Numbered from the stretch's first letter, positions 14,819-20,849 are shown. The stretch is 64,000 nt of DNA from Marinicella sp. (GCA_965230295.1 OZ246001.1:3584001-3648000); one strand, 5' to 3'. Notes: generated by a model from the letters alone, not told the origin. Numbers and translations are program-made.

Positions 14819-17800
14819 TTGATGGTAAAATTTTTTGCTTTTACTCACAACCACTCACTTGGGAGACATGACATGCTAAAACCCTTTGTACGACGAAAAC
14901 ACATCAAGCTCTGCGTGTGTATTCTGATGTTGTTATCATTCGTTTCAATGGCCAACACAACCGATCAATCAGGGACAAAATTACTGCGATTTGCAGATAT
15001 TCATAAAAACAAAGTGACCTTTGTTTATGGCGGTGACATCTACACTGCAGACATACAGTCAGGCCAAGCAAAACGACTGACTTCACACAAAGGTTTTGAG
15101 ACATTTCCTAAGTTTTCTCGTGATGGCAATAAAATCGCTTTCACCGCTGAATACACGGGATCAAGACAGGTTTATGTGATGAATACCGACGGCAGTGGTT
15201 TAAAACAACTGACATGGTATAACGACGTGGGCCCCATGCCACCAAGAGGTGGTTTTGATTATCGCATCTTAGACTGGTCAGCTGACAGTCAAAATATATT
15301 GGTGCGTGCCAATCGATTGCCTTGGGGCATTCGTATGGGACAACCTTATTGGGTCCCAGTACAAGGTGGCATGGAACAACCATTGGCTGTTCCTGAAACC
15401 GGTGGTGGCATGTTGTCACCTGATGGTAAAAAATTCATATACACCCCGATAGACCGTGAATTCAGAACCTGGAAACGCTATCGTGGTGGCCGTGCTCAAG
15501 ACGTATGGGTTTATGACTTAGAAGCCAACAGCAGTGAGCAATTAACCACCCATGCGGCCACTGACCATCAACCGGTATGGGTTGGTGAGGACATCTATTT
15601 CATCAGTGACCGTGATTATCATTTGAATTTGTATCGATATGTGGCAGGTGGTGAACCTGTAAAGGTCACAGATCATCAACAGTATGATGCATTGTGGGCA
15701 TCGGCCGGCCCAGATGCCATAGTTTATGAAAATGGTGGAAATCTCTGGCGATATGACCCAGCAAGCCAGCAAACCGAACCATTGAATATCAAAATCACAG
15801 CCAATCAGGAACACCTGTTGGCGCAGCGGAAAAATGTCAAAGACAACATAGATTCGATGACCATATCCCCTGATGCCAAACGGGTGGTTATTGCAGCCAG
15901 AGGAGAGCTGTTCTCAGTACCTGCAAAGACTGGTGAAATCAAAAACATCAGCAATACCCCCAGTGCCAGAGAAATTGATGTGACGTGGTCACCTGATGGT
16001 AAGCAGGTTGCTTATTTAAGTGATGCTTCTGGTGAGTATGAACTGTATACCAAAAACATCAAAACCAACAAAGTGACACGCATAACCAGTGATGGCAATA
16101 CTTGGCGCTTCCCGCCGGTGTGGTCACCTGACAGCCAGAAAATTGCTTACGCCGATACCAACCAAACTTTATGGGTCGCTGATGTTGAGAAGAAGAAAAG
16201 CAAAAAAGTAGATCGTTCCAGCAGAAATTTCATTCAAGACTATAGTTGGTCACCTGACAGTCAATGGTTGGTTTACAGCAAAACTGAAAACAGTGGATTT
16301 GGCTCATTGTATGTCTACAATCTGGGTGGTGACAAAGTCAGTCGTTTAACCAGTGAGTCATTCAATGATTTCTCCCCAGTCTTTGACCCTAACGGCCGTT
16401 ACTTGTTTTTCTTGTCTAACCGAGACTACAACTTGTCTTTCAGCAGTTATGAGTTCAATTATTTATACCATCGGGCTACTCGTGTCTATGCAGCCACACT
16501 CAACGATGACGTGCCTGCACTGTATCCATTTCAAAATGATGGCATGAGTACGGCTTCTAAAAACAATAAAAAAGCGGACACCGATAAAAATGCTGACAAT
16601 GAAGAAATCACAACAGTAGACATTAAATTGGCTGGATTTGATGACAGGGTTCGGGCATTACCAGGCGGTGCCAGCAATTATAACAACCTACAGTCTAATG
16701 GAGATGCGGTCTTTGTGGTTGAAAATGGAACCAATGGAAACAGCATCAAAATCATCAGTTTAGAAGACAATGAACAACCCAAAGTGGTGATGGCAGGTGC
16801 AACCAATTACCTCTTGTCGGGAGACGGTAAAAGCATGTTGGTTCAAAAAGGTCAAAACCACCACATTGTCAAAGCGGCTGCCGATCAAAAAGCCAAAGAA
16901 AACCAACTGGATCTCAAACATTTAACTTTAAAAATTGACCCGAAAGTTGAATGGCAACAAATGTATACGGATGCCTGGAGGATCCTCAGGGATTGGTTCT
17001 ATGATCCAGGTATGCATGGCAATGACTGGCAAGCCATACATGATAAATACCAACCCATGGCAGCTGCCGCCACCCATCGCACCGATTTAGACTACGTTTT
17101 TGGCGAGATCGCCGGTGAAATGAATGCTGGACACATCTATGTCAATTCTGGTGATCAACCACAAGTGGAGCGCCAACAGAATGGTTTGCTTGGTGCTGAA
17201 TTCGAAAAACACAAAAGTGGTTATTTTAAAATCAGTAAAATCTTTGCCGGTGAGAACTGGACTCCCAACAGGCGTTCTCCATTGACTGAATCTGGGATAA
17301 AAGCTGCTGTGGGTGATTTTGTGTTGTCAATCAATGGTCACAGTACCAAAGACACTGCCAATATTTATCAATTGTTGGAGCACACCCTGGACCGCACTGT
17401 GAGTATCGAATTGAATGACCAGGCGAAAGAATCAGGATCTTGGACGGTCCATGTCAAACCCATTGGTTCAGAAAGCCAGTTGCGTTACTTTAATTGGGTT
17501 GAAGAACGCCGTGCGATGGTAGACAAGTTGTCAGGAGGGCGCATTGGTTACGTTCACTTACCCAATACAGCCATTGATGGCAATCGTGAGTTGTTCAAAC
17601 AAATGCTCCCACAAATAGGTAAAGATGCTTTGATCATTGACGATCGTTACAATGGGGGTGGTTTTATCCCTGATCGCATGATCGAACTGTTGTCGCGTAA
17701 AACCATCAACTACTGGAAGCGCAGAGGTCTGGATTTAGACAGCAACGCCACACCATTGATTGCTCATGATGGGCCTAAAGTGATGTTAACCAACGGCCAA

Positions 17801-18145
17801 TCCAGTTCAGGTGGTGATGCCTTACCTTATTATTTCCGCAAAGCAGGCTTGGGTAAAATCATTGGTACCCGCACGTGGGGTGGATTGATTGGGATCAGTG
17901 GAAATCCAGGGCTGGCAGACGGTGGATCGATTTTGGCTTCAACATTCAGATTTATGGATACAGAAGGCAATTGGGCGGTAGAAAATGAAGGGGTTTCGCC
18001 TGATATTGAAGTGATCGATCGACCAGAGTTGGTGGCAGCGGGTAAAGACCCGTCCATTGAACGGGCGGTTGAGGAATTACTGAAAGACTTGAAAGAAAAC
18101 CCCAGGAAAACGATCAAGTCGCCGCCAGCGCCCACTGAATTTTAA
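14819..18145 (+). CDS. Tricorn protease homologue (S41 peptidase; PD40 propellers, PDZ)
   Basis: WKRYRGG, WSPD repeats, GYVHLPNT, DDRYNGGG, SSSGGD catalytic region, GTRTWGG, ENEGVSPDI; true start probably later (14873 or 14927). Confidence 0.92.
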   Translation: MMVKFFAFTHNHSLGRHDMLKPFVRRKHIKLCVCILMLLSFVSMANTTDQSGTKLLRFADIHKNKVTFVYGGDIYTADIQSGQAKRLTSHKGFETFPKFSRDGNKIAFTAEYTGSRQVYVMNTDGSGLKQLTWYNDVGPMPPRGGFDYRILDWSADSQNILVRANRLPWGIRMGQPYWVPVQGGMEQPLAVPETGGGMLSPDGKKFIYTPIDREFRTWKRYRGGRAQDVWVYDLEANSSEQLTTHAATDHQPVWVGEDIYFISDRDYHLNLYRYVAGGEPVKVTDHQQYDALWASAGPDAIVYENGGNLWRYDPASQQTEPLNIKITANQEHLLAQRKNVKDNIDSMTISPDAKRVVIAARGELFSVPAKTGEIKNISNTPSAREIDVTWSPDGKQVAYLSDASGEYELYTKNIKTNKVTRITSDGNTWRFPPVWSPDSQKIAYADTNQTLWVADVEKKKSKKVDRSSRNFIQDYSWSPDSQWLVYSKTENSGFGSLYVYNLGGDKVSRLTSESFNDFSPVFDPNGRYLFFLSNRDYNLSFSSYEFNYLYHRATRVYAATLNDDVPALYPFQNDGMSTASKNNKKADTDKNADNEEITTVDIKLAGFDDRVRALPGGASNYNNLQSNGDAVFVVENGTNGNSIKIISLEDNEQPKVVMAGATNYLLSGDGKSMLVQKGQNHHIVKAAADQKAKENQLDLKHLTLKIDPKVEWQQMYTDAWRILRDWFYDPGMHGNDWQAIHDKYQPMAAAATHRTDLDYVFGEIAGEMNAGHIYVNSGDQPQVERQQNGLLGAEFEKHKSGYFKISKIFAGENWTPNRRSPLTESGIKAAVGDFVLSINGHSTKDTANIYQLLEHTLDRTVSIELNDQAKESGSWTVHVKPIGSESQLRYFNWVEERRAMVDKLSGGRIGYVHLPNTAIDGNRELFKQMLPQIGKDALIIDDRYNGGGFIPDRMIELLSRKTINYWKRRGLDLDSNATPLIAHDGPKVMLTNGQSSSGGDALPYYFRKAGLGKIIGTRTWGGLIGISGNPGLADGGSILASTFRFMDTEGNWAVENEGVSPDIEVIDRPELVAAGKDPSIERAVEELLKDLKENPRKTIKSPPAPTEF

Positions 18146-18169
18146 AACAAGGATTTCTTTGTAAATAGA

Positions 18170-18198
18170 TTGACTTTTACCAATCTATGTGAAAAATG
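18170..18198 (+). promoter_or_regulatory. Possible promoter of the rtcB leader
   Basis: TTGACT at 18170-18175; only a weak -10 (TGtgAAAAAT); followed by hairpin CACTTGTCCGA/TCGGGCAAGTG 18203-18229. Confidence 0.35.
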
Positions 18199-18285
18199 TA
18201 CGCACTTGTCCGATGGGTTCGGGCAAGTGTAACCATTAAAAACGTGCTATGTGGCACCGAATTAGCATCTAAAGGAGGCTTAAAC

Positions 18286-18318
18286 ATGCAAAACAAATAT
18301 ACGAGAAAAATGAGTTAA
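18286..18318 (+). CDS. Putative leader peptide MQNKYTRKMS
   Basis: Strong SD AAAGGAGG (18271-18278) 7 nt before ATG; TAA is followed directly by alternative hairpins and a terminator. Confidence 0.7.
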   Translation: MQNKYTRKMS

Positions 18319-18376
18319 GCGCCTACCAACATATTTTGTTTGGAAGGCCAAGATTAACAGTGCCTTTCAGACTTTC

Positions 18377-18413
18377 AAAAAGCCTGAAATGCATTGCATG
18401 TCGGGCTTTTTTT
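18377..18413 (+). terminator. Intrinsic terminator (attenuator) upstream of rtcB
   Basis: AAAAAGCCTGA-a-ATGC-att-GCAT-g-TCGGGCTTTTTTT. Confidence 0.8.
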
Positions 18414-18536
18414 ATGCCAGAAAAAAGGCAAGCCTGATTTTTATAAGGAAACAGGCAGCAAGTATTTGCTGCTCAATCAGAGGAGTCTTGTGAGGTCGGT
18501 TTTCATCCGAAGAGCTTGCCCTGATACAGATCGGGG

Positions 18537-19766
18537 ATGAAAGAAGGGAAACAAGACACAAAAACTATGCCAATATTAAAACAAATAAACAAGGGTAAAG
18601 TACCCATAAAAATATATACAGAGGACATTGCACCCCAAGCCATCAATCAACTGGTGAATATTGCCAATTTGCCCATTGTTCACCACCATGTGGCAGTCAT
18701 GCCGGATGTGCATGTTGGGATTGGAGCCACCGTAGGTTCGGTGATTCCCACACTCAATGCTGTTATTCCAGCAGCGGTTGGCGTTGACATCGGTTGTGGT
18801 ATGAATGCGGTGAGAACCAGCTTAACAGCCAATGACTTACCAGATCATTTATTTGGTGTCAGGCGTGAAATTGAACGACTTGTTCCTGTAGGTTTCAACA
18901 AACACAAGAAGTCGGTGGTCAACCGGTCCAGTATCAATGGATTAGACAAGCCATTGGATGAAATCTTACATAAACACCCAGGCATCATGAAAATGTTGAA
19001 AAACTTCAACCCGACCTGGCAAAACCAGTTGGGTACATTGGGAGGAGGTAACCACTTCATTGAATTGTGTCTGGATGAAAATGATGATGTGTGGATTATG
19101 CTTCACTCCGGTTCTCGTGGCATCGGCAATGTGATTGGTCGATACTTCATCAACCTGGCCAAGAAAGACATGCAAAGACACCAACATCATTTACCTGATG
19201 TTAACTTGTCTTACTTGTCGGAAGGCAGTGATCATTTCGATGATTATGTGATGGCTGTTAATTGGGCCCAGGAGTATGCCTGGATGAATCGCCAGGAGAT
19301 GATGAAATTGGTGGTGAAGGCATTGCAAAACAGTGCATTGCCAGCATTCACTTTAACCAAGAAAGCCATCAACTGCCACCATAACTACATATCTCACGAG
19401 ACCCATTATGGAGAGGCGGTTTATGTAACCCGTAAAGGTGCCATCAGAGCAGGTGAAGGTGAGCTTGGCATCATTCCAGGGTCAATGGGAGCTAAATCCT
19501 ATATTGTTGAAGGTAGGGGTTCAAAAACATCATTCTGTTCATGTGCACATGGAGCAGGGCGAACCATGAGCCGCACCGAAGCCAAACGAACTTTCAATAC
19601 CCAGGATTTGAAACATCAAACCATGGGTGTTGAATGTCGCAAAGACAAGAACATGCTGGATGAAATTCCGGGTGCCTATAAGGACATCGATCAAGTGATG
19701 GAGAATCAACATGATTTGGTGTCTGTGGTTCATACTTTGAAACAAGTGGTTTGTGTCAAAGGATGA
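18537..19766 (+). CDS. rtcB: RNA ligase RtcB (3'-phosphate/5'-OH)
   Basis: MPDVH, GVDIGCG, LGTLGGGNHFIE, LHSGSRG, HHNY, RKGA, PGSMG, HGAGR (catalytic His), DEIPGAYKDI, C-terminal VKG; start may be ATG 18567. Confidence 0.96.
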   Translation: MKEGKQDTKTMPILKQINKGKVPIKIYTEDIAPQAINQLVNIANLPIVHHHVAVMPDVHVGIGATVGSVIPTLNAVIPAAVGVDIGCGMNAVRTSLTANDLPDHLFGVRREIERLVPVGFNKHKKSVVNRSSINGLDKPLDEILHKHPGIMKMLKNFNPTWQNQLGTLGGGNHFIELCLDENDDVWIMLHSGSRGIGNVIGRYFINLAKKDMQRHQHHLPDVNLSYLSEGSDHFDDYVMAVNWAQEYAWMNRQEMMKLVVKALQNSALPAFTLTKKAINCHHNYISHETHYGEAVYVTRKGAIRAGEGELGIIPGSMGAKSYIVEGRGSKTSFCSCAHGAGRTMSRTEAKRTFNTQDLKHQTMGVECRKDKNMLDEIPGAYKDIDQVMENQHDLVSVVHTLKQVVCVKG

Positions 19767-19775
19767 AAAAGTAAC

Positions 19776-19803
19776 AACCGCTGTTGGACAGTCAGCAGCG
19801 GTT
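19776..19803 (+). other. Intercistronic stem-loop after rtcB
   Basis: AACCGCTGTTG-gacagt-CAGCAGCGGTT (one G-U), poor U-tract. Confidence 0.5.
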
Positions 19804-19886
19804 TAACTTAGGAAACGATATGCAAGATAACAACGACAGAAAAACTAAAAACTTTATGAATACGAAAACACATATGAGAGAACATC

Positions 19887-20849
19887 ATGAACAAACAACT
19901 GTTAGACGAGGTGTTGTATTGCTTATCTGATGATCGACACACATACCATTATTTCAAAGATAAATATTGTATGTTCCTGTTAGATCATTACATCAAGGAA
20001 GAAACACCCGTTAAAAATATTAAAAACAGCCACTTAGCCAGGTTTTGCCAAAAACCAGTGGTCAAAACATGGTTAGCCGGCATGGGTAAGAAAACCGTCA
20101 ATCCAGAAATGATAGCTGCCATGTGGCCAACTGATCTATATCACTTCACTGTGACATTAGGTCAGTGGGGTGGTGATGACCCCTATTGGCAACAAACGGC
20201 CAGACCCGGGTTTAACCTGGTGGTTCAATTGAACTTCAGTCGTACACACGATCGAATGTATCAGGCAGTGATTGAAAAAGATTCTACATATCAACCTTTT
20301 GTTTGTGAATCTCATCCAATCCATGGGCATCGAAACACCATTGCTTGGGCGCGTTTAGACATCAGTGAAGATTTTTCAGAGGTGCTGATTGAAGAAGTAC
20401 AAAATGATTGGCTCAGATATGCTTGGGGGCTTTATCAGTCCATTAAGAAAGATCCCAATGCAGAACGCCTGGCACGGCATGGCTTTCGAACCAATTGGGA
20501 TCGACTTCAAGCTTACTTTGAAGATGAGATCAAACCCATGATGCAGGTATGGGATGAAGCCATCTTGTGTGCCACATTGGAATATGTAGTCACTCAGATT
20601 GGCGCGGAAAAGATCTATATGTATGACCATTTGACCGGTGTAGAGATGAAATCGATGGGTCATTGGCATCCACCCAGATCTTTATACACCCAACTGCCTA
20701 AAAAGTTCGGTTTTGAAATCACGACGGAATCACCCCGATTTTACCAGGATGATTTTCGTCTTGAACGGCGAATGAAAAAGATTCGCCAAAGGATGACGCC
20801 TAAATGGCATTTTTTAAATTTAAACAAAGGAGGTATCTATGCCCAATAA
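19887..20849 (+). CDS. Uncharacterised protein, possible divergent GNAT-like fold
   Basis: 320-aa ORF; AWARLDI..VLIEEVQNDW..ILCATLEY..GAEKIYM..LYTQLPKKFGF pattern resembles GNAT strand/helix order. ORF is solid, fold call is speculative. Confidence 0.7.
   Translation: MNKQLLDEVLYCLSDDRHTYHYFKDKYCMFLLDHYIKEETPVKNIKNSHLARFCQKPVVKTWLAGMGKKTVNPEMIAAMWPTDLYHFTVTLGQWGGDDPYWQQTARPGFNLVVQLNFSRTHDRMYQAVIEKDSTYQPFVCESHPIHGHRNTIAWARLDISEDFSEVLIEEVQNDWLRYAWGLYQSIKKDPNAERLARHGFRTNWDRLQAYFEDEIKPMMQVWDEAILCATLEYVVTQIGAEKIYMYDHLTGVEMKSMGHWHPPRSLYTQLPKKFGFEITTESPRFYQDDFRLERRMKKIRQRMTPKWHFLNLNKGGIYAQ

Follow-up and report, generated by a model that had tools for sequence, protein, structure and literature searches.

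A predicted leader-peptide transcription attenuator upstream of rtcB in Marinicella sp.

Introduction

Leader-peptide attenuators are a known kind of regulator. In trpL, hisL, leuL and pheL of the enterobacteria, runs of regulatory codons lie inside segment 1 of the leader and one charged tRNA is sensed. The hflXr (Listeria), lmo0919 and vmlR leaders of Firmicutes are antibiotic-responsive attenuators of resistance factors, and toiL, of the E. coli toiL-topAI system, acts via Rho-dependent termination. For the RNA ligase RtcB, which seals broken tRNA and rRNA, the described control is by protein: in E. coli and Salmonella, RtcR and sigma-54 activate rtcBA when the translation apparatus is damaged. 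The timing of rtcB expression in bacteria without RtcR is undescribed.

The described system closest to the one reported here is the armZ (PA5471)-PA5470 operon of Pseudomonas aeruginosa, whose 13-residue leader is PA5471.1. Full translation of the leader peptide leads to a terminator, and armZ, encoding an RtcB-like protein, is expressed upon ribosome stalling, with an early amber codon in the leader or upon deletion of the leader (PMC13041342, PMC12057347). The stalling triggers named are antibiotics and mutations of suhB and cca (PMC13041342, PMC12057347, PMC3516279, PMC3884212), and PMC3516279 places ArmZ in the PRK09588 RtcB cluster, which is linked to a release-factor-like gene. A full-text literature search found leader-peptide control for P. 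aeruginosa armZ only and none for a canonical rtcB; in the literature searched, a leader of this kind before a canonical rtcB is thus undescribed.

The window analysed here is a stretch of 64,000 nt from Marinicella sp. (GCA_965230295.1 OZ246001.1:3584001-3648000), in which a canonical, orphan rtcB carries a cis RNA that would read out translation directly. The initial annotation of this DNA had placed a ribosome-dependent attenuator there and assigned it to rtcB, and this is supported by the linkage between leader and rtcB, by conserved uORF geometry and by covarying helices. We propose that the element is a leader-peptide transcription attenuator that makes rtcB depend on translation of a 10-codon uORF, a reading that we hold, from comparative sequence analysis, at a probability of roughly 70%.

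Results

Anatomy of the leader

The leader as a whole is made up of a promoter-like site, a Shine-Dalgarno (SD) site, a uORF, a set of competing helices and a terminator (18377-18413), all of them 5' of rtcB (Table 1). Its upstream neighbour is a gene for a tricorn-type protease (14819-18145), and the spacer between tricorn and rtcB holds no ORF of at least 60 aa on either strand. A simple terminator scan omitted the 18377-18413 hairpin because its loop exceeds the 8 nt allowed there. The site at 18170-18197 is the sole + strand promoter-like site found by a promoter scan of 17500-20500; the scan overall returned no more sites than it did in shuffles, and a 9/12 match is weak. The site is conserved in congeneric intergenic regions, and near-consensus -35/-10 pairs are seen by eye at the same place in other subgroups. 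The hairpin at 18203-18229 would act as a 5' stabiliser of the leader transcript, and relatives retain it in position with, by eye, entirely different stem sequences.

Table 1. Positions of the leader elements and neighbouring features in the window.
Feature	Position	Strand	Remarks
Promoter-like site	18170..18197	+	TTGACT, 16 nt spacer, AAAAAT; 25 nt past tricorn stop codon; 9/12 match
Hairpin at predicted 5' end of leader transcript	18203..18229	+	11 pairs, 5 nt loop
uORF Shine-Dalgarno site AAAGGAGG	18271-18278	+	7 nt before ATG; alternative partner 18315-18324
uORF MQNKYTRKMS	18286-18318	+	10 codons; TAA at 18316-18318
Segment 1	18321..18330	+	Partner is segment 2; in reach of a ribosome on the stop codon
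Segment 2	18338..18348	+	Pairs with segment 1 or segment 3
Segment 3	18360..18375	+	With segment 2, anti-antiterminator; with segment 4, antiterminator
Segment 4	18377..18394	+	Terminator 5' arm (18377-18389) and loop bases taken by the antiterminator
Segment 5	18399..18413	+	Terminator 3' arm (18399-18411) and U7 tract (18407-18413)
ATGCC	18414..18418	+	Abuts the U tract; conserved across families
Additional structured 5' UTR piece	18419..18566	+	Terminator-to-rtcB interval; common only to the window and L017
rtcB	18567..19766	+	399 aa, taking as start the ATG aligned with that of the relatives; PF01139, E 2e-130
320-aa gene	19887..20849	+	No family match; predicted GNAT-like fold; downstream of rtcB

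The geometry of the uORF is kept throughout the 20 aligned leaders: in 20/20 the SD lies 4-8 nt before the ATG, the uORF is 9-11 codons long and its stop codon falls 0-4 nt before segment 1. The coordinates given in the initial annotation for the SD, the uORF, the segments and the terminator all hold the features described for them. Two objections raised with that annotation, that the uORF might not be conserved and that rtcB might have its own promoter further downstream, are countered by the 20/20 conservation of SD, ATG, length and stop position and by the finding of no second + strand site in the scanned 17500-20500 region.

Between the terminator and rtcB, the ATGCC motif abutting the U tract recurs in leaders of the Marinicella, Ketobacter-like and Acinetobacter groups as well as in the paralogous modules described below. 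It is followed by the additional piece (~115 nt, within 18419-18566), which forms two stems with compensatory changes and has a folding z of -2.56. In other close relatives, without this extra piece, rtcB starts only ~40-50 nt past the terminator. The SD-like AAGGAA that precedes rtcB in other relatives is separated from the rtcB start codon by the extra piece in the window.

Mutually exclusive helices

RNAfold of sub-windows gave -11.0 kcal/mol for 1:2, -14.4 kcal/mol for 2:3 and -17.7 kcal/mol for 4:5. The antiterminator 3:4 exists and excludes the terminator, as the initial annotation had it, but it had been drawn too short: it reaches -5.5 kcal/mol as first drawn and -12.4 kcal/mol with four extra pairs (18360-18363:18391-18394) that continue it into the terminator loop. 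Folded as a unit, 18271-18420 reaches -41.2 kcal/mol, compared with -29.2 +/- 3.5 kcal/mol for 200 dinucleotide shuffles (z -3.38; 0/200 as good), and the argument that the leader stands beyond chance rests mainly on its conservation.

Conservation of pairing was followed on two alignments, A1, a MAFFT alignment fitted to no structure, and A3, in which 28 distinct sequences were aligned to a model that knew only 2:3 and 4:5. On A1 the paired fraction is 96.4% for 3:4, where 5/10 pairs have changed on both sides, 93.6% for 2:3 (3/11) and 92.3% for 4:5 (4/13), as against 27-68% for slid controls. On A3, the unfitted 3:4 is 90.5% paired with 6/10 pairs changed on both sides, with 94.8% (5/11) for 2:3 and 97.4% (5/11) for 4:5; the leader sequences are related, and the underlying cell counts exceed the number of independent events. 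In the register of the window, 1:2 is only 63.5% (A1) and 64.2% (A3) paired because subgroups use shifted registers. Folded singly, 1:2 forms in 20/20 leaders at -8.3 to -14.0 kcal/mol, and substitutions in segment 2 have counterparts in segment 1 (among them GC 13 / AT 4 and TA 10 / CG 4) in a table derived from the folds and hence fitted, such that the support for 1:2 is that of the per-sequence folds. Covariation among homologous rtcB leaders had been put forward at the outset as a check, and it yields compensatory changes in 2:3, 3:4 and 4:5; the exclusive set of 1:2, 2:3, 3:4 and 4:5 first drawn in the window is likewise kept in relatives.

Proposed mechanism and energetics of the switch

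From the anatomy, conservation, covariation and energetics of the leader we infer translation of the uORF, the reach of the ribosome, the order of folding and the direction of regulation as follows. Transcription would begin at the promoter just past the tricorn gene and give an RNA in which the SD, numbered 0, and segments 1 to 5 make up six segments that pair only with their neighbours (0:1, 1:2, 2:3, 3:4 and 4:5). In the healthy state a ribosome at the TAA would cover segment 1. Ribosome footprint geometry is based on the toeprint at +15 to +17 from the P-site codon, and segment 1 probably lies within the footprint of a ribosome at the uORF stop. With segment 1 covered, 2:3 would form once segment 3 emerges, segment 4 would be left free, 4:5 would pair and RNA polymerase would stop at U7, keeping rtcB off. 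In the damaged state a ribosome stuck at the start or within the first ~seven codons would occupy the SD and leave segment 1 free. The 1:2 helix would then form, segment 3 would take the 3' half of the terminator 5' arm together with loop bases (3:4), the terminator could not nucleate in time and polymerase would enter rtcB, which would be on.

The uORF had been remarked on from the start as having no run of a single amino acid, and this is borne out among the 20 leaders, in which the peptide is non-conserved and no regulatory codon is repeated. Given a variable peptide and no codon run, the leader would respond to slow or failed translation of any kind, the very condition that an RNA ligase mending tRNA and rRNA should answer.

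In nascent RNA that begins at the stop codon and stops short of segment 5, 1:2 and 3:4 form in 20/20 leaders, and at full length the minimum is 2:3 with 4:5 in 18/20, with the terminator formed in 20/20. The on-fold is thus a kinetic trap, and the barrier from the on-fold to the terminator fold is put by findpath at 9.1-18.3 kcal/mol (median 14.7), values that are upper bounds. Folding with segment 1 masked, a check suggested with the original proposal, gives a divided result: when 14 nt counted from the stop codon were masked and segment 5 was left off, only 12/20 leaders had 2:3 as their minimum, and the window under the same masking keeps 3:4 as its minimum, at -18.3 kcal/mol. Given that masked equilibrium folds favour 3:4 in the window, the off-decision must rest on the order of synthesis and would need 2:3 to have formed before segment 4 is made.

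Pairing of the Shine-Dalgarno region with segment 1

In 20/20 leaders the SD region can base-pair with the stop codon and the start of segment 1. These duplexes range from -9.1 to -14.4 kcal/mol, compared with shuffle means of -4.4 to -7.1 kcal/mol, and in 19/20 leaders no more than 7% of shuffles are as good; the duplex of the window has -9.9 kcal/mol, and 2.7% of its shuffles are as good. In naked leaders with SD and uORF included, 1:2 is kept in 15/20 and 3:4 in 16/20, and the window keeps both at -31.0 kcal/mol. Four naked leaders (L016, L018, L023 and L057) have neither 1:2 nor 3:4 and one (L019) is without 1:2, and the fold traces of all five show SD:1 and 2:3 instead.

This bears on what happens when no ribosome loads. 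The initial annotation had rtcB on both when a ribosome stalls early and when none arrives; the first of these is secure, but the second is insecure given the SD:segment 1 pairing in relatives. In the window the prediction that a never-loaded leader is on is an equilibrium one, and in some relatives it may be reversed. It is possible, if doubtful, that the leader works in the manner of trp-like superattenuation, such that an untranslated leader forms 0:1, frees segment 2 for 2:3 and terminates, and only a ribosome that loads and then stalls allows read-through; what is sensed would then be elongation stalling, not loss of initiation. Consistent with this, the complementarity is present in every leader and stronger than in shuffles, SD:1 with 2:3 beats the on-fold by 2.4 to 13.9 kcal/mol in the five naked relatives, and the SD is made before segment 2, hence 0:1 can form first. 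However, the window and 14 other naked leaders prefer 1:2 and 16/20 keep 3:4. Furthermore, the main 0:1 stem of the window uses 18315-18320 and is compatible with 1:2, and 0:1, a long-range helix around a loop of ~35 nt, is less stable than the local 1:2 hairpin.

Codon content of the uORF

A candidate explanation for the composition of the uORF, that it is rich in codons for tRNAs cut by anticodon nucleases (middle base A), was rejected: such codons are not enriched in frame (131/254, versus 114/226 and 110/226 in the other frames and a shuffled mean of 48.1%). Given that middle-A codons are no commoner in frame, the composition of the uORF mainly reflects A-rich, unstructured RNA, and the uORF would act as a translated spacer rather than as a gene for a peptide.

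Gln is found within codons 2-5 in 24/28 distinct leaders, compared with 6.9 on average and at most 14 in 2000 composition-preserving shuffles, a test that overstates the case given that the sequences are related; the early Gln is a lead, not proof. It raises the alternative that the early Gln codon is the stall site and that the leader senses glutaminyl-tRNA, not translation in general. Gln also stands at codon 4 or 5 in the rtcB leaders of Janthinobacterium, Acinetobacter and a Moraxellaceae genome, and Gln3 and Phe4 of PA5471.1 matter for induction in a cca mutant of P. aeruginosa (PMC13041342). We nevertheless consider such a sensor unlikely: there is one codon and no run, 4/28 leaders lack it, in-frame middle-A codons are not enriched, and a CAA after the ATG may just reflect an A-rich, unstructured start.

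Distribution of the leader and its linkage to rtcB

The leader accompanies rtcB. By nhmmer it is present in 18/18 assessable loci with an RtcB of 78% identity or more, a count that leaves out L030 from the 19 loci at that identity (only 60 nt upstream). Of 41 related genomes searched at the DNA level, 10 have the leader, this genome included, and synteny of leader and rtcB held in 8/8 loci checked out of those 10 genomes. A covariance model, R1, found the leader in 13/151 order-sampled genomes (this genome counted) and in 10/17 family-sampled genomes. R1 also matched directly upstream of distant rtcB genes (E <= 8e-5) in Ketobacter-like (L057, L049, L040) and Cellvibrionaceae (L045, L046, L053) loci. 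A crude signature, in which an ORF of 2-35 codons led by an SD precedes a hairpin and 5 or more T, occurs upstream of rtcB in 43/80 loci and in 12/1290 control tiles taken from those loci and consisting largely of coding sequence; the positives include 14 Janthinobacterium loci (a 15th, L063, is negative) and 2 Acinetobacter loci. Comparable rtcB leaders are thus seen in Marinicellaceae, Ketobacter-like, Cellvibrionaceae, Acinetobacter, Moraxellaceae and Janthinobacterium loci.

A tricorn gene lies upstream of the leader in only 5/27 leader loci and is absent from that place in 22/27, therefore the hairpin cannot be put down to the ending of tricorn transcripts alone, an objection that had been named from the beginning. 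The broader form of that objection is that the element is passive, with a hairpin that ends tricorn transcripts or insulates rtcB, other helices that are ordinary UTR and a fortuitous uORF. The terminator is indeed the first after tricorn in the window and in 5 relatives, and a 10-codon open frame is not rare by chance in A-rich sequence. This reading is very unlikely given that the leader accompanies rtcB in the 22 loci without tricorn, the geometry of the uORF is kept in every aligned leader, three competing helices carry compensatory changes and the crude signature is so unevenly divided between rtcB loci and the mostly coding control tiles. That the ~210 nt terminated leader or the decapeptide has an sRNA or micropeptide function of its own, besides or instead of cis control, is highly improbable, for although healthy cells would make mostly the short transcript and a sequence-related module stands before RNA genes elsewhere in the genome, the peptide is non-conserved, no Rfam family reaches threshold and the competing helices account for all conserved bases. 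An Rfam search of 17500-19500 (E <= 10) gave only sub-threshold chance matches, the best at 27.8 bits versus a threshold of 49 (E 0.33).

No match to RtcR, RtcA or Ro/TROVE was found in this genome, a single contig that is 98% complete, and it encodes only one RtcB. In the absence of an RtcR match, the usual protein activator of rtcB is not available in this genome, and the attenuator proposed here would be a control in cis.

Gene downstream of rtcB

The 320-aa gene follows rtcB in 10/27 leader loci at 32-70% identity. Its product has no Pfam or NCBIfam match and, in a Foldseek search against the PDB, nothing at E <= 0.001. The AlphaFold model has a pLDDT of 83 and a pTM of 0.86, and over residues ~84 to 316 nearly all of the top 50 VIA-align rows are GNAT acyltransferases, at middling Z (7.3-9.1); a GNAT-like fold is predicted from these alignments. 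By eye, an SD-led frame of ~29 codons (19820-19909, +) overlaps the start of this gene in another frame.

Related modules elsewhere

A paralogous module lies 3.4 Mb off in the same genome, on the minus strand at G000:C1:219588-219678 (L111 7589-7679), where R1 gives a partial match of 40.1 bits (E 4e-4). It has segments 1-5, the U tract and ATGCC, and stands behind a promoter-like site and a 32-codon uORF. Downstream of it lie two tRNA-like genes that match YrlA, a Y RNA-like family, below threshold (35.1 bits versus 69, E 8e-5). After the tRNA-like genes there is a region of ~0.9 kb without an ORF of at least 90 aa, which extends to an SPFH-domain gene and has stretches 70-93% identical in three congeneric genomes. 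GOLLD, ROOL and other large RNA families gave no match in that region even at E <= 5. Five further loci (L067, L070, L072, L105 and L107) have the same kind of module followed by tRNA genes, and in L067 (318-1501) the order is module, tRNA, a sub-threshold GOLLD-like stretch (40.7 bits versus 150, E 1e-7), tRNA and rtcB.

It is a speculative idea, and one we would not bet on, that a translation-damage module is used more than once, the rtcB leader being one of its copies, and that it defines an RNA-repair regulon without RtcR. If this were so, stalled ribosomes would switch on the ligase together with its RNA cofactors or substrates, and damage to tRNA-Gln would, through the early Gln codon, be a favoured trigger. 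The interest of the leader would rise if the module before the tRNA-like and Y RNA-like genes were to prove co-regulated.

A second RtcB paralogue of other Marinicella (L073-L083), absent from this genome, has a uORF of ~22 codons whose stop codon lies, by eye, inside a copy of the terminator 3' arm. This leader looks like a simpler, three-segment attenuator of possibly the same logic, and R1 matches at these loci are weak (E 0.018-1).

Discussion

With trpL, hisL, leuL and pheL the leader shares a leader peptide, neighbouring hairpins that are alternatives to one another, an intrinsic terminator and a decision that would be made by ribosome position. It differs from them in having no codon run, in a uORF that stops short of segment 1 and in an additional anti-antiterminator layer, 2:3. 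The leaders of hflXr, lmo0919 and vmlR have a small uORF and a cascade of terminator, antiterminator and anti-antiterminator that is opened by translation inhibition, as it would be here; in contrast to these, the leader in the window controls, on our reading, an RNA ligase in Gammaproteobacteria, and the two groups are of no common sequence family (no Rfam match). Like toiL-topAI, the window leader would have a uORF report translation inhibition to a downstream gene, but its terminator is a canonical hairpin with a U7 tract. The comparison with toiL made in the initial annotation is not the closest one available; the PA5471.1 leader of armZ is closer. RtcR and sigma-54 in turn resemble the proposed attenuator in the outcome, induction of rtcB upon damage to the translation apparatus, and differ in that a protein activator does there what a cis RNA would do in the window.

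The likeness to PA5471.1-armZ is a short leader ORF and a terminator before a gene of the RtcB family, with the same logic and no codon run. Nevertheless, there are several differences. The RtcB of the window scores 181.2 against a cut-off of 407 for PRK09588 and 153.9 against 271.8 for TIGR03073, and the gene after rtcB is predicted to encode a GNAT-like fold and no release factor. The literature model has four segments and the leader in the window has six. The comparison of leaders was made with PRK09588-type loci of marine Gammaproteobacteria, the best 80 of 304 relatives, among which P. aeruginosa armZ is not included. The window decapeptide falls outside the peptide pattern common to 78/80 of these loci, a pattern that stands in for the P. 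aeruginosa peptide, and R1 has no upstream match in 81 PRK09588-type loci (P. aeruginosa again not among them). The PRK09588/ArmZ-type loci themselves (L114-L193) have, in 78/80 cases, a conserved leader peptide of 13-16 residues with an F-A-G core, 114-286 nt upstream, and a hairpin with at least 5 T in only 3/80; judged by sequence, theirs is a distinct leader family with a conserved peptide.

In summary, the system in the window would work like PA5471.1-armZ but, judged by its RtcB subfamily and, against the PRK09588-type loci of marine Gammaproteobacteria, by its peptide and its RNA, it probably lies outside that family. Given that comparable leaders stand before rtcB in several groups, armZ may be one case of a widespread link between ribosome stalling and RNA ligases, and such a link is then possibly not peculiar to an efflux regulator.
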